This document shows, one piece after another, positions 7,938-22,134 of a stretch of DNA of 24,534 nt. Source of the DNA: a virus (Duplodnaviria; Caudoviricetes); IMG/VR virus record IMGVR_UViG_3300038679_000199, positions 1-24,534 of that record; one strand, 5' to 3'. The notes beneath the pieces are model-generated. The model worked only from the letters and a program-made list of their open reading frames with translations, was not told the origin of the DNA and did not search any database. Numbering within the stretch: the first letter of the stretch is position 1; each line of letters starts with the position of its first letter. Both the position numbers and the translations under genes were made by a program.

Positions 7938-8068
7938 GGGAACCGTTTTTCGTTTTTCGTTAAAAGTATAAAATCACCGCTATTTAGGGATGATGTCCCA
8001 CTTTCCGGGTCCGCGGAGGCCTCCGTTTAAGAACGATCGGAGCTGAGTCATCCCACTTTGCCTTTTTT

Positions 8069-8101
8069 ACTGACCACTGGCTACTGACTACTGACTACTG
8101 A
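8069..8101. repeat. Heptamer tandem repeat (ACTGACT-like x4.7)
   Basis: actgacc actggct actgact actgact actga. Confidence 0.85.
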
Positions 8102-10737: not shown

Positions 10738-10754
10738 AAACTTTGCCCGCTTTT

Positions 10755-10785
10755 CTGACTACTGACTACTGGCTACTGACCACTG
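10755..10785. repeat. Heptamer tandem repeat (ACTGACT-like x4.4), intergenic
   Basis: ctgact actgact actggct actgacc actg. Confidence 0.85.
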
Positions 10786-11818: not shown

Positions 11819-12127
11819 CTAACTCAGCGTGTAATACCGCTCGATCTTTCTGATGGTGGCCAGGAAGGGAATCTCCTTGCCGTACTTTTCCAGTTGATTG
11901 ATCAGCACCGCCGAGCCGGTAAAAATCACGTGTTGGGCTTCATCCTTCATAAATTGCACCGTCAGGCACCGGGGAGAATTGTTTTTAAATTTGCTCTCAT
12001 TCACCCGGTAGCCGGTGACCAGAATCTCCTGGTTGAGAATGCTGTCTATCTTGACTTTTTCGCCTGCCAGGGGCCGGTCGTCCTCGGCAAAATCGCTAAA
12101 CCGCCTGGCAGGTGTTCCAGAGCTCAT
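11819..12127 (-). CDS. Small beta-rich hypothetical protein, candidate DGR accessory factor (102 aa)
   Basis: ATG with GGGGA upstream, overlapping the RT 3' end by 32 nt. Alternating hydrophobic strands (EILVTGYRV, CLTVQF, HVIFTGS, PFLATI) rather than the Avd helical bundle. Confidence 0.7.
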   Translation of the reverse strand: MSSGTPARRFSDFAEDDRPLAGEKVKIDSILNQEILVTGYRVNESKFKNNSPRCLTVQFMKDEAQHVIFTGSAVLINQLEKYGKEIPFLATIRKIERYYTLS

Positions 12128-13106
12128 CGATCCCCAAGCTCCTCTTGAAGTTGTGGGCGTTGGCCCACTTGAGCCATCCCAGGGTGGAGGCCAGGGAAGA
12201 GCGGAACTGCTCCAGGGTGAGTTTCCCCCGGGCCAGCATATCCGGCAGCCTGGCCAGCCTTGCCTTTACCCGCTTGGCGGTGCTTTTCCGCAGCAGCAGA
12301 TATTTGGGAAAGTGCCGGTAGCCCAGGAAATCCACCCCCCGGCTCACCGGGAAGACGTCCTCTTTGCTCAACCGCAGCCGGAGCTGCTTGGCGAGAAAGC
12401 TCCGGATATGGTTCAAGGCGGCGTGCAGAAACTTTTTGTCGTCATGGAATAAGCAAAAATCATCGCAGTAGCGCACATAACCCCTGACCCTAAGGGTGTG
12501 TTTGACAAACCGGTCCAGTTCGTTCAGGTAGAGGTTGCCGAACCATTGGCTGGTGTAGTTACCGATGGGGGCGTTCTTGCCGCCGGGCAGGCTGTAAATG
12601 ATGTCGTTTAGCAGCCACAGCGTGTCCCGGCACTTGATCTTCCTCTGCACCAGGTCAAACAAAATGTCGTGGTCGATGGAGGGATAAAACTTGGAGATAT
12701 CGCCCTTCAGGCAATACCGGTATTTCCGGACCAGCTCCATTGTCCGGCGGCTGCCGGCATGGAGACCCTTGCCCTGGCGGCAGGCGTAGGAGTCCGGGAT
12801 GAACATGGCGTCCCAGATGGGCTCAATGACGTTCATCAAGGCGTGCTGGACGATCCGGTCGGGATAGAGGGGCAACCGGTAGATGGTCCTGGTCTTGGGC
12901 TCATGGATGGTCTTCAGCCGATAGGCCGATGTGCAAAAGGTTTTGTTGACCAGGGACTCTCGCAGTTTGCCCAAATGCTCCTCCAGATCCTGCTCCACCC
13001 GCTTCACGGCGCTCTGCCAGGATTTTCCCCGCCGGGCCTTGACAAAGGCCAGCCTCAGGTTGTCCTCGGTCACGATGCGGTCATAGAGGTTGCCGTGCCG
13101 TTTCAT
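12096..13106 (-). CDS. DGR reverse transcriptase (336 aa, bRT-like)
   Basis: MKRHGNLY N-terminus, DRIVQHA, LKGDISKFYPSIDH, PIGNYTSQ (DGR-type GxxxSQ), YVRYCDDF, GVDFLGY. No maturase or endonuclease domain. Confidence 0.96.
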   Translation of the reverse strand: MKRHGNLYDRIVTEDNLRLAFVKARRGKSWQSAVKRVEQDLEEHLGKLRESLVNKTFCTSAYRLKTIHEPKTRTIYRLPLYPDRIVQHALMNVIEPIWDAMFIPDSYACRQGKGLHAGSRRTMELVRKYRYCLKGDISKFYPSIDHDILFDLVQRKIKCRDTLWLLNDIIYSLPGGKNAPIGNYTSQWFGNLYLNELDRFVKHTLRVRGYVRYCDDFCLFHDDKKFLHAALNHIRSFLAKQLRLRLSKEDVFPVSRGVDFLGYRHFPKYLLLRKSTAKRVKARLARLPDMLARGKLTLEQFRSSLASTLGWLKWANAHNFKRSLGIDELWNTCQAV

Positions 13107-13113
13107 AGAAATC

Positions 13114-13154
13114 GCCTGGGGGAGCTTTCGCCGGGGATACTAACTCCCCCGGGC
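13114..13154 (-). other. Stem-loop in the TR-RT spacer (probable structured part of the DGR template RNA)
   Basis: Minus strand GGGGGAGUU...AGCUCCCCC, 9 bp with one G-U, just upstream of the RT start. Confidence 0.6.
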
Positions 13155-13232
13155 CTCCGCTTGGTATTTTGCTGTCCCGGCCCTCCGGGAACAACATGGC
13201 CAAAAGGTTCAGCCAGGAGTGTCGCACCCTGT

Positions 13233-13348
13233 CTCCGTGCACCTGCGAGTGCCGATATTCGCATTCGTATTCCAGCGATAGTTATTCGCATTCCGGCACC
13301 GGGACCTGCAATTCGTCCCATTATTCCAATTGCCGCCCGCCAGGAGCT
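13233..13348 (-). repeat. DGR template repeat (TR)
   Basis: 116 bp, non-coding (in-frame TAG immediately before). Conceptual translation LLAGGNWNNGTNCRSRCRNANNYRWNTNANIGTRRCTE with 10 AAY codons. Confidence 0.96.
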
Positions 13349-13374
13349 ACCCATTAACCTTCCAGCCAATTTGC

Positions 13375-13391
13375 CGCGCCCGCGAGGCGCG
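13375..13391. promoter_or_regulatory. GC-rich hairpin downstream of VR (probable DGR target-recognition hairpin)
   Basis: CGCGCC-cgcga-GGCGCG, 16 nt beyond the target stop codon. Confidence 0.65.
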
Positions 13392-13407
13392 TTGTCGTAT
13401 AGTCGTT

Positions 13408-15198
13408 TTACCTTGGCTCCGCGCACCCGCGAGCGCCGAGAGCCGCATTCGCAGACCAGCGAGAGCTACTCGCAATCCGGCACCGGGACCCGCAAATCGC
13501 CCCATCATTCCAATCGCCGCCCGCCAGGAGCTTAATGTCCCCATAACTGCCTTGCAGATAAAGCGAGCCCTTGTTGCCGCCCATATCAACATATCCCCAG
13601 GCCGGTTCGGTGTGGGTCATGGCCAGGTCCATCGTGGCGTTGGCAGCCCCGGGGCTGATGTACTCCAGTTTGTTGTCCGCCCCATCGTCGTAATTTACTG
13701 CCACGCCGTTGGTAGCAGCGTTGGCGTCGTGCTTGATCGGCAACAGATAGTTGGGGTCATTGCTCAGGGCGTAGCAATTTTTGCCCAGGATAGTGTTGTT
13801 GACCAGGAACCGGTACGGCAGTGTGGCGTCATAATCGAAATACAGCGGCAGCCCGCCCGTGGCCGCATCGGCGTCGTGTTTGACCACCAGCTTGTAATTG
13901 GTGCCAAAGGTGAGCACTACGTCCGCCGCCACCGTAGCCAGGTTGCAGCAAAGGTAGGGCGTTCCGTCCAGCCCAAACTTGACATAGATGGGGTTGCCGC
14001 CAGGAGCGGCAGCGTGGTAAAGGGTAGTAGTTTGCCCGCCCGCCACATAGGCCACCGTCCCCCGGTCGAACCGGTACGACTGATCCCGAAGCCACTGCCA
14101 TAAGAGTCCACAGGCCCCCTCCACGAAGATATAGGAGGTCATGCGCCGATTATTGCTGTCTACCAGGCCGTTCATCACCACAAACGTGGCGGTCTCGCCA
14201 GTTACCCACCCCACTGCCGCCGGGAACGTAATGAGTAACCCGTCCGCCAATGCCTGAGCCGCCCCGGTGATCTGGATCGGGTCCGAGGCCGCCCCCAGCA
14301 CCCCGGCTGGATTGCACTGCTGGTAGGTAAAAAAGTTGGGGTCGCTGCCGTGACCGATCGAAATGGTGATCTTATATTCCTGGGCCTCATTTACTGCCCC
14401 CACCGGAGGCACATAGGCGCTCCGGTTAATCCAGGCTGAGGCCGGTGCTCCCGCAGCCCAGGTCCCGGTCTTGGAAAGATAGATGACGCACTTGCCATTG
14501 GTTACCGGATCGAGAGAGCCGTAAATATTGGTCTTTTGATTGCTGCCCTCGGCCAGCGACGCAAACTCCTCATCCCCAGGGTGCCGCCAGCCCACCGCCG
14601 CCAGGTCATCCCCCATATCCATCCAGTTGCGGGTATCCGAGATCGTGGCCCCGTAGGCGCTCTCGGTGTTAGGCCCGGTGTTGGATATCATATAGATGGG
14701 GCTCCAAACCTTGGCCTTATCGTCCCAAACTGTCCCTTCCTGCTTGCCCCTGGTCCGATGATTTAAACACCAGACCGAGGTCGGGATAATGGCCCCAGCA
14801 GCAAACCCACTCCCAGGATGACTCGCTATCACCCCAATTGCGCAGCACAAACTATGAAACCCACCAATCTTCCGGGAATTGTCCGCCGAGTACCCCGCCG
14901 GGAAGGTGCTGTTGAGGCTGACCACAATCTCGCCATCCTCGCAGACGTAGACGTAATAGTTCTTCCCTGCCTCCATGACTCCAGTGTCCAGCTTATCGGC
15001 CACAGCAAAAGAGGTGTCGGCATCCCAGGAGAGCAGCGTGTGTACCCCGGCATTGATGACCTTGATATTTGTTTCGGCCTTGATGATGAGTTCCGTCTGG
15101 GAAGCCGCCACCAGGAAAGGGGTGTATAGAGCCGCCAGGTCCCCGACGAAAGAAATAGGAGCATACACTGCCGAATTGAGAATTCTACGGTTAAGCAT
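13408..15198 (-). CDS. DGR target protein, Mtd-like C-type-lectin-fold adhesin with two inserted domains (about 596 aa)
   Basis: Start reassigned to ATG 15198 (GGGAGG upstream). Motifs match Bordetella phage Mtd as recalled: AGKNYYVYVCEDG, PAGYSADNSRKIGGFH, EFASLAEG, ACGLLWQW, GGNKGSLY, GGDW...GSR...GARG. Confidence 0.9.
   Translation of the reverse strand: MLNRRILNSAVYAPISFVGDLAALYTPFLVAASQTELIIKAETNIKVINAGVHTLLSWDADTSFAVADKLDTGVMEAGKNYYVYVCEDGEIVVSLNSTFPAGYSADNSRKIGGFHSLCCAIGVIASHPGSGFAAGAIIPTSVWCLNHRTRGKQEGTVWDDKAKVWSPIYMISNTGPNTESAYGATISDTRNWMDMGDDLAAVGWRHPGDEEFASLAEGSNQKTNIYGSLDPVTNGKCVIYLSKTGTWAAGAPASAWINRSAYVPPVGAVNEAQEYKITISIGHGSDPNFFTYQQCNPAGVLGAASDPIQITGAAQALADGLLITFPAAVGWVTGETATFVVMNGLVDSNNRRMTSYIFVEGACGLLWQWLRDQSYRFDRGTVAYVAGGQTTTLYHAAAPGGNPIYVKFGLDGTPYLCCNLATVAADVVLTFGTNYKLVVKHDADAATGGLPLYFDYDATLPYRFLVNNTILGKNCYALSNDPNYLLPIKHDANAATNGVAVNYDDGADNKLEYISPGAANATMDLAMTHTEPAWGYVDMGGNKGSLYLQGSYGDIKLLAGGDWNDGAICGSRCRIASSSRWSANAALGARGCAEPR
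13417..13532 (-). repeat. DGR variable repeat (VR)
   Basis: Ungapped match to TR with 18 mismatches, all opposite TR adenines. Encodes LLAGGDWNDGAICGSRCRIASSSRWSANAALGARGCAE. Confidence 0.96.
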
Positions 15199-15526
15199 TA
15201 GCCCCTCCCGAAAAAATGACTGCCGCAACTGGCTCCGGTGCCGCGGTCAGCGTCTTCAACCTCAGGCGGATAAACAATGCCGTCTGGTCCTCCTGCAGTT
15301 CCATCTGGCGCCGCTCCAGCTTGCCGTCAACCTCCGCCTCCATCACCTTGTGGGTCTCATCCGTGATCCCGGGTTTGCCGTCCGTGATCACCTTGGTGGT
15401 CACCCACACCATGCCGGCCGCCTCCATCGCCGCCAGTTTTGCCCGGGCCTGGCCAGCGAACTCCGGCATGGCCAGAAGGTTATCCATGTCCTGTTTGCTG
15501 CCGATGGCTTTAGGAAATCCGCGCAT
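15191..15526 (-). CDS. Hypothetical protein translationally coupled to the DGR target (about 111 aa)
   Basis: Likely start MRGFPKAIGSKQD at 15526. Its stop overlaps the target ATG. Confidence 0.7.
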   Translation of the reverse strand: MRGFPKAIGSKQDMDNLLAMPEFAGQARAKLAAMEAAGMVWVTTKVITDGKPGITDETHKVMEAEVDGKLERRQMELQEDQTALFIRLRLKTLTAAPEPVAAVIFSGGANA

Positions 15527-16971: not shown

Positions 16972-18447
16972 TTAATGCACCACAGTGCCCAGGCTGTAGA
17001 CGGTCACCGCCTCGGTGCCGGAACCGATATTGGTCACCACCGCCAGGAAGCGTTTGCTGTTGTTCTGGGCGATGGTCGCCGTACCAGACACGGTCGAATC
17101 GCCATTGGCGGTCAGGGTGATGGTTTCGTTTGCGTCGGCGGTATTCCGGATGGTGAATTCAAAACTTGAACCCACCACGCACCCGGGGATAGCCGCCACA
17201 ATGTCGGCGGGCGCGGGCAGCAGATCCGCCCGGGCGCCGCCGGCCGGGTCCCGGAGGATGAGGCCGCCCAGGATCTGGGCCGCAGTGAAGGTAACAGCAT
17301 CCGCGGTGGCCTCGGTAGTTACCGCAGTGCGCGGTTTTTCTATTGGGTTTAACGTGTAGATGGTCACCGCCGCTACCGTGACATTGGTAAGCACCACCCG
17401 GAAGGTCTTGCTCCGGTAGCGCTCGATGGCCATGTCGCCGGACAGAGTCAGCCCGGTGTTGGTGGTCATGTTGATGATTTCTTCCGCATCCGCGGTGTTG
17501 CGGATGGTGATATCAAAAGTCTGACCCACCACACACCCGGGCAGGGCTGCGATGATATTGGCCGCGGTGGGGAACAGGTCGGCCCGGTTGGCCCCGGCCG
17601 GGTCCCGCAGGATAAGGCCGCCCAGGATTTGGGCCGCAGTATGGGTTACCGCCCCGGCCGTGGCAGTGGTGGTTACCGCTGCCAGCACTGGAGGCTCCAG
17701 GGATTCGGCGTAGATGCTCACCGCCTCGGTGCCGGCCCCGACATTGGTCACCACCGCCAAAAAACGCTTGGCGCGGTTGCGGCCGATCACCATGTCGCCG
17801 GACAGGGTCAGCCCGGTGTTGGTGGTCATGGTGATGGGTTCATCGGCGTCGGCGGTGTTGCGGATGGTGAAGGGGAAGCCGGAGCCGACCACGGCCCCGG
17901 CGATGCCGGCGACGATTAGGGCCGCAGTGGGGAACAGATCCGCCCGGGCGGCGCCGTTGGGATCGCGCAGGATCAGGCCGCCGAGCAAATCCGCCACGGC
18001 ATGCGTCACCGCCCCGGCCGTGGCCTCGGTGGCCACCGCATATTGCTGCCAGGCCACCTGAGTAATGGCCGGCAGCGGCCCGATGAGCAGGACACTGCCC
18101 AAATCGTCTTCAGCCGCGGAGGCCTCCAGGACGATGGCCCGGGCATAGGCCAGGGCTGCGGCTGCGTCCTTGCCTTTGCCGGCGTCGGCGGCAGAAACAT
18201 ACTCAGCCTTGACAAAGGACCCGATGCCCAGGGCGTCGTTCAGTTGCAGCTTGGAGACGCCGAGAACCATCACCGCGGCCGCCTGGCCGGCGGCCGGGGC
18301 ATTCTGCAAAATCCCCGCCAATACTTCCGTTTCCGAGTCAGGGCGCCTGTAGCCGGTGGTGCCCAGCACCACCCAGCGGTACTGATCGTTGCTCAGATCC
18401 TCGGCCGCCGGCCCCGAAAGCACTAAAACCGGATTTTCACTTGACAT
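16972..18447 (-). CDS. DUF2190-like capsid cement/decoration protein fused to three tandem ~118-aa repeats (491 aa)
   Basis: The first ~120 aa carry AAEDLS..QYRWV...GILQNAPAAGQAAAVMVLGVSK. Three copies of LGGLILRDPxGxxRADLxP...F.IRNTADA.E.I follow. Confidence 0.78.
   Translation of the reverse strand: MSSENPVLVLSGPAAEDLSNDQYRWVVLGTTGYRRPDSETEVLAGILQNAPAAGQAAAVMVLGVSKLQLNDALGIGSFVKAEYVSAADAGKGKDAAAALAYARAIVLEASAAEDDLGSVLLIGPLPAITQVAWQQYAVATEATAGAVTHAVADLLGGLILRDPNGAARADLFPTAALIVAGIAGAVVGSGFPFTIRNTADADEPITMTTNTGLTLSGDMVIGRNRAKRFLAVVTNVGAGTEAVSIYAESLEPPVLAAVTTTATAGAVTHTAAQILGGLILRDPAGANRADLFPTAANIIAALPGCVVGQTFDITIRNTADAEEIINMTTNTGLTLSGDMAIERYRSKTFRVVLTNVTVAAVTIYTLNPIEKPRTAVTTEATADAVTFTAAQILGGLILRDPAGGARADLLPAPADIVAAIPGCVVGSSFEFTIRNTADANETITLTANGDSTVSGTATIAQNNSKRFLAVVTNIGSGTEAVTVYSLGTVVH
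16990..18040 (-). repeat. Three intragenic tandem repeats (about 355 bp each)
   Basis: Visible at DNA level, e.g. catgtcgccggacagRgtcagcccggtgttggtggtcatg at about 17431 and 17791. Confidence 0.9.
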
Positions 18448-18482: not shown

Positions 18483-19109
18483 CTAACCCAGGAAGGACTG
18501 CTTATATTCCCGGGCCAGTTCGGGGTTGTGTTTGAGCACCTGTTCGGTGGCGGCGGCAAGGTCAATCTTCTTTTCGTCCGCCAGCTTCCGGGCCTTAAAG
18601 GCCACGCGCCGGTCAACCGGGGCCTCGGGGCCGGGGTCGCCGTCACTGCCATGGCCGCCGTCCTTCAACACCCCGAGCTTGTCACCGATGGGGACGATTT
18701 GGGGGCGCAGCGCCAGGCGGGCCTTAAAACCCTCCAGGTCGCGCTTGGCGTCGGTCACGGCCAGGTCCCGCTCCGCCGGGATCAGCTTACCGTCCTTCAA
18801 GGCCACTTCTACGATGGCCTCAGCGTCCCGGGTGGCTTCCCGGTCCTTCAGGGCCGCCACTTCGGTGGTCAGGGCCGTGAGCTTGCCCTGGTCGCCCTGG
18901 TGGGCGGCCTTGAGGGCGGTGATGGCCGCGGTGACCTCTCCGGGCTTGGCGTCCGCCTTCAGTCCCAGGGCCTGAAAAATCTCCGGCAGGGCGGCGGCCT
19001 GCGTTTTAAAGGCAACCGCCTCCTGCTCCCGGGTCTCCACCAGGGCCAGTACCTCAGCCTCGGTAGCCTCGGGCTGCAATCCAAACTTCGCAATCAGTTT
19101 CTTCAACAT
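18483..19109 (-). CDS. Internal in-frame scaffolding protein (Mu gpZ-like, 208 aa)
   Basis: GAGGAGG Shine-Dalgarno at 19118-19124 ahead of the in-frame ATG 19109 (MLKKLIAKFGL). Confidence 0.7.
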   Translation of the reverse strand: MLKKLIAKFGLQPEATEAEVLALVETREQEAVAFKTQAAALPEIFQALGLKADAKPGEVTAAITALKAAHQGDQGKLTALTTEVAALKDREATRDAEAIVEVALKDGKLIPAERDLAVTDAKRDLEGFKARLALRPQIVPIGDKLGVLKDGGHGSDGDPGPEAPVDRRVAFKARKLADEKKIDLAAATEQVLKHNPELAREYKQSFLG

Positions 19110-19646
19110 GGCTGTTGCCTCCTCTTGCTGTTGTGACGCCGGTTTTTCAACCGGCGGATTTTCCGCCATGACCTGAATGTCAAGCCCCGGAAGGAATTTT
19201 GCCGCCAACAGGGGGGATAAAACCTCACCTTTCAGGGCCGGGGTATTGGTCAAAGCGGCATGCTTCAGCTCCATTGGTTGACTGAGTTTGATCACCGGCG
19301 AATAATAGCGGAACTCGCCGTCCTGAATGGCTTTTAGGGCTCGGGGCGTCCAGGTCACTTTAGAATAAAGGCCATCGGCCCGGGCTTTCAGATCCGTGAT
19401 CCAACCGGCGGCAGGAGCATCTCCATCACCCAGACTCTGGTGCTGGTAATCCACCACCAAATCCACCCGGTCTGCCCGGAATTTTTTAATAATATCCTCC
19501 AGGTCGGAGGCTTTGACCTCGAAGGGTTTGCGGGAATCGCGCAATTCCACCCGCCCGAGGGGCATAATTCTAATCCATTCGGCCGGCTGGCCCCGGAGGT
19601 CACAGACATAGAGCAAATGTTCGATTGTCATGGTTTGCTCATCCAT
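18483..19646 (-). CDS. Mu-like prohead protease I / scaffold (387 aa)
   Basis: WIRIMPLG, VVDYQHQS, APAAGWI, VTWTPRA...GEFRYYSPV, AALTNTPAL, then a coiled-coil C-terminal half. Confidence 0.92.
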   Translation of the reverse strand: MDEQTMTIEHLLYVCDLRGQPAEWIRIMPLGRVELRDSRKPFEVKASDLEDIIKKFRADRVDLVVDYQHQSLGDGDAPAAGWITDLKARADGLYSKVTWTPRALKAIQDGEFRYYSPVIKLSQPMELKHAALTNTPALKGEVLSPLLAAKFLPGLDIQVMAENPPVEKPASQQQEEATAMLKKLIAKFGLQPEATEAEVLALVETREQEAVAFKTQAAALPEIFQALGLKADAKPGEVTAAITALKAAHQGDQGKLTALTTEVAALKDREATRDAEAIVEVALKDGKLIPAERDLAVTDAKRDLEGFKARLALRPQIVPIGDKLGVLKDGGHGSDGDPGPEAPVDRRVAFKARKLADEKKIDLAAATEQVLKHNPELAREYKQSFLG

Positions 19647-19854
19647 TCCGGGCGATGGCCGCGTTGGCCCACATCATCGCCTCTTCGAGTTTGGTCTGAG
19701 CCAGACTCTTTTCGCGACTATCAGGACAAAGATCAGCGATCAGATAGGCAAATTCCTTGGCTTTGGCTCGAAGAGATTCATATTTTTGGGGCTGATCCGC
19801 CTTTGGGGCATGATAGGTAAACCTGTTTTCCAAATCTTTGTTAACGAGGCTCAT
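19639..19854 (-). CDS. Acb2/Tad1-like helical-hairpin protein, candidate cyclic-nucleotide sponge (71 aa)
   Basis: FTYHAP...Y..LR...CPDSREKSLAQTKLEEAMMWANAAIAR motif, recognised from memory of the family. Confidence 0.72.
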   Translation of the reverse strand: MSLVNKDLENRFTYHAPKADQPQKYESLRAKAKEFAYLIADLCPDSREKSLAQTKLEEAMMWANAAIARNG

Positions 19855-20531
19855 GGTTGAACTCCTTCCACGTCCCGGCGCACCTGGTGGGCCAGCTCCG
19901 GGGCGTAACGATTATAGTCGGGCTGCCAGCCGCCGCCCTGGCCCGGCCCGGCAAACTTGGCGCTGGGGGGCACGTCCCGGGGCATGGTGTAGCTGATGCT
20001 CAGCCCCGCTGCTTCTATCTCCGCCGGAGATAGGGTTTCCACCAGGCAGTTTCAGTTGTAGTCCCAGGGCGGCCAGTGGGCCGCCCAGAACGGGTGATCC
20101 AGGGGGTAGACCAGGTCATTGAGGGCCCGATGCGTCGGCCGGGGATTGACCCCGGTGATGTAACGCCCAAAGGGCCGGAACTCCCTGGCCTGCTGCGCCT
20201 GGGCCAGATGTCCGGCCCCGTAGGCGCTGCTGACGTTCTGCTGAAAGACCAGGTTCAGGTGCCAGGGCTCGGTTAAGAGCGGCCGGGCCACGTCCTGAAA
20301 ATCCCGCTGGGTGCCGCCGGTGCTGATAATGCCTAAAAGCGAGTCGTACAGCGCCTGCAACTGATCCGCCGCCAGCACCCGGGCGGCGGTAAAGGCCCGG
20401 GCCTTCTCCACCGCCGCCAACTGGTCGAACTCCTCCCGGGTGAGCATCCGCCCCAGCTTGCCCCGAAAATAGGCGATGGCCTCCTCGAAGGGAGGCATAT
20501 CTTTGCCGAAGCGGCCCTGGAATTCAGCCAT
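19851..20531 (-). CDS. Mu gpF / SPP1 gp7-like head morphogenesis protein with in-frame TGA at 20052-20054 (226 aa if read through)
   Basis: PFEEAIAYF, RAFTAA, RPTHRAL..LVYPLDHPFW..HWPPWDYN-(TGA)-NCLV. ORFs 20052..20531 and 19851..20042 are in the same frame. Confidence 0.85.
20015..20033 (-). promoter_or_regulatory. Candidate bacterial SECIS hairpin
   Basis: CUAUCUCC-GGC-GGAGAUAG, perfect 8-bp stem. The G-initiated loop begins 26 nt after the UGA. Confidence 0.5.
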
Positions 20532-22134
20532 TGACGCGGCCTCTTAAATTCGCCATGATCCGCACCTGGCCCAACAATACCTCCAGGCTCCGGGTGTCGA
20601 TGCGGCTGTAAAGCGACAGAAGTTTGTCCTTGATGACCTCCAGGGACTCACCGCTTTCAATCAGGTCCGCCACCGGCGCCAGCATCTTGCCCAGATATTC
20701 CTGGGCCTCGACGTTGGCCGCCTGGGTGAGATTATCCAACTCCTGCTGAATCATCTCAGTTCCAGGGGCGGCGGGGAGGGATGCCACCGCCTTCATGGCC
20801 GCCGCGTCTCCCTTTTCCGCCTCTTCATCCTCTTCGCCCTCGGGCTTCTCTCCCCCCTTTGCAACCGGGGGGCCGGAGGGGATTTCCGGCGCTGCCGGCA
20901 CCGATAAAATTTCCTCATCACCCTCCGGGGCGGGGATGCCGTAACGCTGATAACAATGGCTCTTGGGCACTTCCAGGCCGATTTTGACGAAATTTCCCAG
21001 GGCCTCGGACTCCATCTTGAAATCAATGGCTTCCTGCCCCGCCAGGGTCACCTGGGGCAAGGGCGCATCCGGGCCGTAATTGAATAACACCAGAGGGCGG
21101 ATAAGCTGATCCCGGAGCACTGCGGCCAGGTCCTTGGCATCGGACTCCACCAGGTCCTGGCGCACGTTTTCATGCGCATTACCCGCCAGGGTGCCGCTGC
21201 CGGGGCTGCTTTCGGTGGTCAGGGTCTGCCCCAGCACCGCCTTGGACATCTCCCGGTTGCACACCTGGATGAGCACCTCATAGGGCAGCACCTTGCCGGT
21301 GCCCGCCTTGGCGGCCTCAACAAATTCGATGGAGGTATTCTCGCTGATCACCGCGTAGGCGTCGCTGCCGATGGACTTGAGGGCCTCCTTGATAGCCTTC
21401 CGGTCCTCAGAACTGGCCGTCTGGTTATATTTGCCCACCCGCAGAGGCATGCCGTGGACCTCATTGTAGACAGCCCAAAACTTCCAGTTGTAGCTCTTGA
21501 GCAGATACGGCAGGGTGCAGGAGCGCAGTACCCCGCCCCGGCAGACGTCGCCGGAGCGGCCCCGGTTGCGGAGGAAAATGATCTTCCAGGGCGGCGGCGC
21601 CAGGCCGGCGCCGTTGGCCTCGGTGATAATCAGGGGCGTGGGGCTGTTGACAAAGCTGACACACTTGGCCGGAATCCATTCCAGGCCGGCCACCACCGCC
21701 CGGTTATTCTGATATTCCCAATGGATCTCCGAGGCGGCATAGCCCTTGCCGATGGCGTCCAGCAGGTCCATGAGGTCGCCCTGGAGGTCGGGGATGGCCT
21801 GGATTTGCTCATCTACGAACTGGGCGATCTCCTGGTCCCGGGCGTCGTCGCTGGCCGGGGCAATCTGTAGGGGCCGGCCTAACACCGCCAGCTTCCGGGT
21901 CTGGAGGATGGCCGCCAGGTGGGCGTCCTTCTCCTCCATCTCCTCGTAGAGCTCCATCAGGTAGCGCATGTAGCCCTGATCGCCCTGCCACAGGATCGCC
22001 CGCAGCCGCTCCGGGGTCAGGTTGAAGCTGGGATAATCGGACCAGCGATTCATCACCGCGCCGATACCCAGCTCATTGGTGACCGCCTTGGCCGGCGGCT
22101 TGATTTTTTGGCCCAACCAGGAGATTAAATTCAT
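20524..22134 (-). CDS. Portal protein, Mu gp29 / DUF935 family (536 aa)
   Basis: LTPERL..IL...ELYEEMEEKDAHL...LQTRKLAV, LLDAIGKGY, E.HGMPLRVGKY, MSKAVLGQTLT motifs. Confidence 0.93.
   Translation of the reverse strand: MNLISWLGQKIKPPAKAVTNELGIGAVMNRWSDYPSFNLTPERLRAILWQGDQGYMRYLMELYEEMEEKDAHLAAILQTRKLAVLGRPLQIAPASDDARDQEIAQFVDEQIQAIPDLQGDLMDLLDAIGKGYAASEIHWEYQNNRAVVAGLEWIPAKCVSFVNSPTPLIITEANGAGLAPPPWKIIFLRNRGRSGDVCRGGVLRSCTLPYLLKSYNWKFWAVYNEVHGMPLRVGKYNQTASSEDRKAIKEALKSIGSDAYAVISENTSIEFVEAAKAGTGKVLPYEVLIQVCNREMSKAVLGQTLTTESSPGSGTLAGNAHENVRQDLVESDAKDLAAVLRDQLIRPLVLFNYGPDAPLPQVTLAGQEAIDFKMESEALGNFVKIGLEVPKSHCYQRYGIPAPEGDEEILSVPAAPEIPSGPPVAKGGEKPEGEEDEEAEKGDAAAMKAVASLPAAPGTEMIQQELDNLTQAANVEAQEYLGKMLAPVADLIESGESLEVIKDKLLSLYSRIDTRSLEVLLGQVRIMANLRGRVNG

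Follow-up and report, generated by a model that had tools for sequence, protein, structure and literature searches.

Bacterial selenoprotein genes, e.g., those of the formate dehydrogenases of E. coli, possess an in-frame UGA at the position of a conserved Cys, and in genes decoded through SelB this codon is followed by a hairpin (bSECIS). The published description of this element, in the part of its text available (PMC13188914), specifies a loop of 3-9 nt, a stem of 4-16 bp, G(G/U) as the two bases that open the loop, a spacing of 16-37 nt, and a minimum free energy (MFE) at or below -7.5 kcal/mol. The MuF family is not among the 119 prokaryotic selenoprotein families listed there (PMC13188914, Table 1).

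Concerning viruses, a review of 2019 regards, in its available text, two glutathione peroxidases of poxviruses as the only proven viral selenoproteins (PMC6769590). The poxvirus selenoproteins (MC066L of molluscum contagiosum virus, GPX4 of fowlpox) are viral genes that borrow the selenocysteine (Sec) machinery of the host; they are host-derived glutathione peroxidases with a eukaryotic SECIS.

The MuF1 family (PF04233), which includes gpF of phage Mu and gp7 of the Bacillus phage SPP1, is encoded after the portal gene and exhibits the motifs R-x-x-H and PP-x4-CxC. SPP1 gp7 is described, in the available text of three studies, to bind the portal and DNA and to be packed in the virion in few copies (PMC5576092, PMC6316719, PMC4493119). 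In the same portions of text it is dispensable for assembly and needed for efficient infection (PMC6316719), and of the virions lacking it, only about 25% are infectious (PMC6316719, PMC5576092, PMC4493119). MuF polymorphic toxins are extended at the C-terminus by at least 100 aa that include a toxin domain (PMC5576092, available text).

The gene studied here is located in a 24.5-kb virus record without host DNA, analysed over its whole length and hereafter called the window. Its product, gpF, is most similar in organization to the short MuF proteins, the toxin extension being absent, and differs from phage Mu gpF and SPP1 gp7 in a putative Sec codon in place of Cys and in a SECIS-like hairpin. 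With bacterial selenoprotein genes (those mentioned above as well as selD and fdh of G001, the genome that serves as proxy host) it shares the in-frame UGA at the site of a conserved Cys and, 16-37 nt downstream, a hairpin whose loop begins with G-G/U, and selABCD are present in the proxy host G001; unlike those genes, it is phage-encoded, belongs to a virion morphogenesis gene, and is connected with no known redox enzymology. In contrast to the poxvirus proteins, it represents a native structural family of phages with a SECIS of the bacterial type and apparently repeated switching between Cys and Sec. We consider it highly likely that UGA160 together with the SECIS-type hairpin is read as Sec, yielding a predicted virion selenoprotein of 226 residues with a U-N-C motif.

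While decoding by SelB and bSECIS is a known mechanism, a selenoprotein family of phage MuF proteins is very likely new. No phage selenoprotein is mentioned in the available text of PMC12013277, PMC13745706, PMC5029168, PMC9402790, PMC5512222, and bioRxiv 2022.07.06.499078, and in the literature searched, with supplements and most subscription papers outside its scope, no publication dealing with a selenoprotein of phages or of the MuF family was found. The statement of a previous sequence-only reading that no virion selenoprotein of the MuF family had been described thus holds within that literature. The 376 GenBank phage records matched by gpF all stay under 60% identity, and the 25 of them that were listed are below 34.5%.

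Organization of the head gene module

The minus strand of the window carries the gene modules for head and tail of a phage of the Mu type (terminase, portal, gpF, I protease, gp36, gp37, and tail tube), in which gpF directly follows the portal, its predicted binding partner (Table 1). The assignment to the gpF/gp7 family made in the sequence-only reading is borne out by this position and by the match to PF04233 (E 1.1e-9, 39.5 bits; curated cut-off 29.6). Concerning TIGR01641 (SPP1 gp7 domain), the sole model returned by an NCBIfam search on MuF, gpF stays below the cut-off (23.4 vs 39.65 bits), which is passed by the relative P0014 (59 bits). The Pfam match ends at residue 164 of 226, and the remaining 62 residues exhibit no further domain. 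tRNA genes were not found in the 24.5-kb window.

Table 1. Features of the gpF locus and its neighbours, with positions in the window
Feature	Position	Strand	Basis or remark
Portal gene	20524..22134	-	PF06074, E 1e-96; directly upstream, overlaps gpF start
MuF/gpF minor head protein gene	19851..20531	-	226 aa with UGA160 readthrough; 159 aa if stopped
His134 of R-P-x-H, probable further ligand at the CxC site	20130..20132	-	no variation in alignments A1 and A3
TGA within the frame at codon 160 (predicted Sec), first residue of U-N-C	20052..20054	-	homologues have Cys here (WPPWDYNCNC / CRC)
Cys162, second position of CxC motif	20046..20048	-	sequence; codon is TGA in CxU and UxU relatives
bSECIS-like hairpin, 8-bp stem, GGC loop (20025-20023)	20015..20033	-	folds and constraint test
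Acb2/Tad1-like anti-defence gene	19639..19854	-	PF24729, E 7e-26; ATG overlaps true gpF stop (TGA)
Mu-like I protein (head protease/scaffold)	18483..19646	-	PF10123, E 3e-61; downstream of gpF

The Acb2/Tad1-like gene, which is situated between gpF and the protease, is not conserved beside gpF in relatives: no match to it was found in L337 or L351-L353, and in a contig of a further sequencing run (X6) it is replaced. If translation is coupled, readthrough of UGA160 could govern how much of its product is made, in this phage alone. As a general model, coupling of Sec readthrough to Acb2/Tad1 was dropped on account of this lack of conservation.

The in-frame TGA codon

The gpF frame reads ...HPFWAAHWPPWDYN-TGA-N-C-L-V... 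and continues, as had been stated before, through 66 sense codons beyond the TGA until a second TGA overlaps the ATG of the next gene. TGA is the terminator in 8 of the 23 listed gene-sized frames, i.e., besides gpF, in those of the tape measure, gp36, gp37, gpG, Acb2, portal, and terminase. Because it terminates these seven other genes, the standard code with TGA as a normal stop applies here, in agreement with the initial view that TGA is not globally recoded, and a global reassignment of UGA (code 4 or 25) is rejected.

At the three positions of the codon, contigs from four sequencing runs (X1, X3, X4, X5) contain no variant. Those of X1 and X3, either of which may be the source of the window, exhibit 0 differences to it over 801 nt, whereas X4 and X5 represent variant strains that differ from the window elsewhere than in the TGA codon. 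A contig of X6 differs at 42 sites over 19867-20513, none of them between 19971 and 20075 among the rows listed. A read error as origin of the TGA is rejected, since the same letters are present in four runs including two variant strains. Two RNA runs (X8, X12) yielded no contig across gpF, a result that is neutral with regard to its expression.

Recurrence of TGA in MuF homologues

Among 46 database homologues of the protein, five of full length (P0002-P0006; 73-80% identity) possess Cys-Asn-Cys at the motif, and ten (58-91% identity) stop exactly one residue before its first Cys; MuF genes with TGA are thus represented as truncated proteins in databases (10/46 matches here). Another subfamily includes, among its best 120 homologues, four that end exactly before the second Cys.

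The DNA of IMG/VR was scanned with the motif P-F-W-x4-P-P-x4-[1]-x-[2], matches being kept as true MuF if the region upstream scored against the MuF profile. With T-R-R at the first Cys, 31 matches were obtained, 18 of them true MuF and all 18 with TGA (one being identical to the gene of the window); with T-R-R at the second Cys, the 25 matches included 11 true MuF, again all with TGA (9 CxU, 2 UxU). None of the four Trp-to-stop matches in IMG/VR is a MuF, and TAA, TAG, or TGG is found at neither Cys among the true MuF there. TGG is, like TGA, one change away from a Cys codon. Given about 5200 Cys-Cys stretches in IMG/VR (an estimate from 2 of 64 parts), the TGA forms amount to about half a percent. 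In GTDB, a wide pattern yielded 108 matches (9 true loci and 99 by chance), and JGI metagenomes contain 13 loci of the subfamily of the window, 3 with TGA and 10 with Cys.

After removal of duplicates, 35 distinct TGA loci remain (28 UxC, 6 CxU, and 1 UxU), in 29 of which the codon of the window (Cys1) is TGA, and their frames stay open for 44-323 codons beyond the motif. The TGA at this codon is therefore not private to the window; it recurs in many diverged homologues.

This restriction to TGA bears on the possibility that a TGY codon mutated to a nonsense TGA and was tolerated because the minor head gene can be dispensed with, which would leave a 159-aa product or a pseudogene. A single change suffices for it, SPP1 gp7 is described as non-essential in the text available, and decaying prophages carry stops in MuF (3/63 at non-Cys codons, see below); however, the equally near TGG, as well as TAA and TAG, never occurs at either Cys in true MuF.

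Profile searches without assumption of the motif revealed two more TGA loci, namely L367 (U-R-S) and L396 (of a distant subfamily). L367, from the genome G115, possesses a Cys in the column of His134, and L396, from G412, reads CxxC...H-T-F-U-R-C with TGA at the first Cys; both exhibit hairpins with G-G/U loops 18-25 nt downstream. In a sample of 401 genomes of one phylum, three of 63 MuF matches contain TGA at Cys1 (one of them being the centre of the search), and another three contain a stop at a non-Cys codon. The latter (L397 with TGA, L398 and L399 with TAG) were set aside as ordinary nonsense. Ordinary nonsense in MuF genes thus exists, but it is spread over the domain.

Seven TGA-MuF genes (L017, L026, L030, L038, L339, L341, and L342) run 215-323 codons past the motif, and a C-terminal effector domain in such long genes, if there is any, would need readthrough. 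Effector domains of the PBECR type occur in proteins from the search with L078.

The hairpin downstream of the TGA codon

The hairpin, CUAUCUCC-GGC-GGAGAUAG, was recovered as it had been described from the sequence, with its 8-bp stem and its GGC loop at a distance of 26 nt from the UGA. Its energy is -9.3 kcal/mol alone and -21.9 for 60 nt. Its stability is only moderately unusual, since 7/200 dinucleotide shuffles of the 50-nt stretch are as stable (z -1.79), and compared with resampling of synonymous codons it reaches p = 0.01; the additional lower pairing CUGC/GCAG is seen only in folds of 70 and 80 nt. The hairpin lies within all four bSECIS constraints as given in the available text cited above, and it resembles that of selD in G001, where a TGA precedes a stem of 8 bp that is closed by a GGU loop.

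Concerning the family as a whole, a bSECIS-like test (our own script version of the published criteria, not bSECISearch) is passed by 27/35 TGA loci vs 12/95 GC-matched Cys loci (p 6e-12; here and below, p values are optimistic, because the TGA loci are partly related and their independence is overstated). Eight of the 35 TGA loci fail, and 0/34 Cys loci of low GC pass. At p 0.05 or less, the best hairpin surpasses resampled synonymous codons in 16/35 TGA loci and 3/95 Cys loci, whereas a simpler score with G as first loop base separates the two less well (17/35 vs 18/95). In 12 pairs of TGA loci, the codons of the hairpin (+3 to +14) exhibit fewer synonymous changes than the remaining codons (28/115 vs 465/1070, p 6e-5), and in 20 pairs of Cys loci, hand-picked from the tree, the proportions are 69/163 at the same codons vs 791/1851 elsewhere (p 0.93). 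The hairpin is therefore both conserved and enriched at TGA loci, and the pairing of UGA and hairpin recurs in dozens of diverged phages.

Among individual relatives, L351 and L337 keep the hairpin with changes of the G-U type. In L004, a TGA locus of a 50%-identical CRC subfamily, a hairpin of 7 bp is present, whereas among the 11 Cys relatives listed for it, 10 are without a hairpin stronger than -3 kcal/mol. The full hairpin is also kept in L352, a close relative with Cys whose motif region is the same as that of P0003, so that within this clade the hairpin alone does not discriminate between the two states. The observation fits a reversion with a leftover (fossil) SECIS or a hairpin that existed beforehand; in canarypox, such a 'fossil' SECIS is described as kept after Cys reversion (PMC6769590, available text), and L352 may be a comparable case.

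The same data bear on a programmed leaky stop (ordinary readthrough stimulated by the hairpin, with insertion of Trp, Cys, or Arg and a long product made in smaller amount than the short one) and on a split gene restarting at the GTG at 20042. Neither a leaky stop nor a split gene gives a reason for the restriction to TGA and to the two Cys codons, and a generic leaky stop requires neither G-G/U loops at SECIS spacing nor an association with Sec hosts (see below). One to three copies of MuF are needed per capsid, according to the published text available, so that a low output would suffice, and from the GTG a frame of 63 codons is open; this GTG, however, lacks a purine-rich ribosome site, and a restart there would lose both motif residues. 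We therefore regard a leaky stop or a split gene as very highly unlikely, and reading of the UGA as Sec as the preferred explanation.

Selection and phylogenetic distribution

Among the window, L353, L351, and L337, dN/dS amounts to 0.17-0.32 after the UGA and to 0.11-0.32 upstream of it, and in other pairs of TGA loci it ranges, where computable, from 0.05 to 0.39 after the UGA. The frame downstream of the UGA is under purifying selection, dN/dS being below 0.4 wherever it could be computed in TGA-TGA pairs. The open and selected frame argues, like the hairpin and the synonymous constraint that track the TGA and the enrichment of hosts for selA (see below), against a tolerated nonsense mutation; that explanation is already largely refuted and, in our judgement, barely credible.

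In a rapidly built tree of 165 rows, for which both columns of the motif had been masked, the 35 TGA loci are scattered over the family; the TGA state needs 16 changes, 11 of which are forced by starred branches. As this tree is unrooted and samples the Cys rows sparsely, gains and losses are indistinguishable. Cys and Sec thus appear, judging from the sequences, to have been exchanged repeatedly in phages of Sec-rich hosts.

Hosts and their selenocysteine machinery

Eight of the nine GTDB genomes with a TGA-MuF contain selA, selB, and tRNA-Sec (66 bits or more), whereas selA is found in 21/50 genomes with chance matches (the first 50 of 99; p 0.012). Record titles among the eight include Desulfobacteraceae, Bilophila, two Nitrospirota, and a Pseudomonadales. 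The exception, G005, is without selA, selB, and selD over the cut-offs, and carries its TGA-MuF on a contig of 1.6 kb, which is possibly mis-binned. In G115, the host of L367, selB and a selD with TGA are present; selA and tRNA-Sec were looked for in this genome and not found.

The genome G001, a draft of unstated completeness titled uncultured deltaproteobacterium, contains a prophage syntenic with the window from terminase to tape measure (identity 78% for gpF, 82% for the capsid). The prophage shares a contig of 667 kb with selB and tRNA-Sec; the tRNA possesses a UCA anticodon and a G before CCA. selA is matched in two pieces, probably owing to a frameshift error, and selA is present in 76/83 genomes of the order of G001. 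Most MuF matches in this order keep Cys, TGA being found in 2/30. The Sec genes to which the sequence-only reading had pointed (selA, selB, tRNA-Sec, and selD) are present in hosts of related prophages, selD having been checked in three genomes only and G001 serving as a proxy for the host of the window.

These genomes also bear on the possibility that the UGA is read as Cys by a tRNA-Cys(UCA) of the selC* type, dependent on the SECIS or not, with little or no selenium involved. Such a tRNA, which is able to suppress UGA, is described together with a second selB, in the text available, for some deltaproteobacteria, namely in Syntrophobacterales and Desulfobacterales (PMC5389517), and several hosts found here belong to that phylum. 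The proxy host G001, however, possesses over the cut-offs one selB and one tRNA-Sec-like gene, with G before CCA vs U73 in selC*, and TGA-MuF genes are also present in genomes of Nitrospirota and Pseudomonadales with canonical selABC. Decoding as Cys thus seems highly unlikely to us, and insertion of Sec remains the preferred reading.

Motif chemistry and predicted function

His is found at column 134 in all motif classes, except for two single loci of 166. In L359 and L367, Ser is situated at position 162, Cys at column 134, and His three residues before position 160. Distant MuF subfamilies exhibit the pattern CxxC...H..CxC. Across the family, the Sec codon replaces either Cys (UxC, CxU, UxU, and one U-x-S), which argues for a role as metal ligand or bridge more than for a single catalytic Sec; the swaps among Cys, His, and Sec, together with Sec at either position, appear more in keeping with zinc ligands than with a single catalytic nucleophile.

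The AlphaFold model of gpF has a mean pLDDT of 76.7 and a pTM of 0.57. With Foldseek, no match to the PDB at E 0.001 or better was obtained, and structural matches of the model are generic helical ones only (Z up to 5.4). A sequence profile search for solved relatives returned none, only a designed helical repeat, and no solved structure was found for the MuF/gp7 family.

The U-x-C selenoprotein proposed from the sequence is supported by the conserved TGA, the selection downstream, the hairpin, and the Sec genes of related hosts, from which we infer the insertion of Sec. Very probably, SelB of the host would bind the hairpin with the GGC loop and deliver Sec-tRNA to UGA160. It is rather probable, judging from the motif residues, that U160, C162, and H134 with a fourth ligand would form a metal site of the zinc type on which the C-terminal part of MuF folds. 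By analogy with SPP1, the protein would, with a similar degree of probability, bind the portal, be packed in one to three copies, and help in genome ejection. In a selenium shortage, translation would end at residue 159, and virions would assemble and infect less well. Since SPP1 gp7 is, in the published text available, dispensable for assembly, selenium is more likely to affect infectivity than head assembly; the link between selenium and head morphogenesis drawn in the sequence-only reading is, by this analogy, probably wrong in detail.

Why Sec should be favoured in such a site can be suggested only tentatively, and we hold the following to be possible, though doubtful: Sec may be selected in the MuF metal site because it keeps a DNA-pilot protein working after exposure of the particle to oxygen outside the anaerobic host, or because it acts as a switch by which the infectivity of the progeny depends on the selenium status of the host cell, MuF, which ranks among the most widespread virion proteins in tailed phages, having become a selenoprotein many times in phages of Sec-rich anaerobes, each time with a SECIS of the host type being built.

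If Sec insertion is confirmed, MuF would constitute a new selenoprotein family, formed by a native structural protein of phages rather than by a captured host enzyme, and phages would use the 21st amino acid of their hosts, with repeated switching between Cys and Sec at two motif positions. The Sec swaps offer a handle on the old question of the role of the conserved H...CxC motif in MuF/gp7, and a possible influence of selenium supply on infectivity is predicted for phages whose anaerobic hosts use Sec.

Other features of the window

A diversity-generating retroelement is situated on the minus strand at 11819-15228 and consists of a small gene (11819-12127), a reverse transcriptase (12096-13106), and a target gene with an Mtd domain (13408-15228). 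The 3' end of the target gene (13410-13532) is 84% identical to 13226-13348 over 123 nt, resembling a variable and a template repeat. In the syntenic prophage of G001, the retroelement genes have no match within the 54 kb compared. Between the protease and the major capsid gene, a gene of 491 aa (16972-18447, minus strand) without a Pfam match contains three repeats of approximately 120 codons (about 71% DNA identity) and is shorter in relatives. Finally, an intergenic repeat of 46 nt is present in two copies (10740-10785 and 8055-8100) of 83% identity, which are made up of short units of the CAGTAG type.
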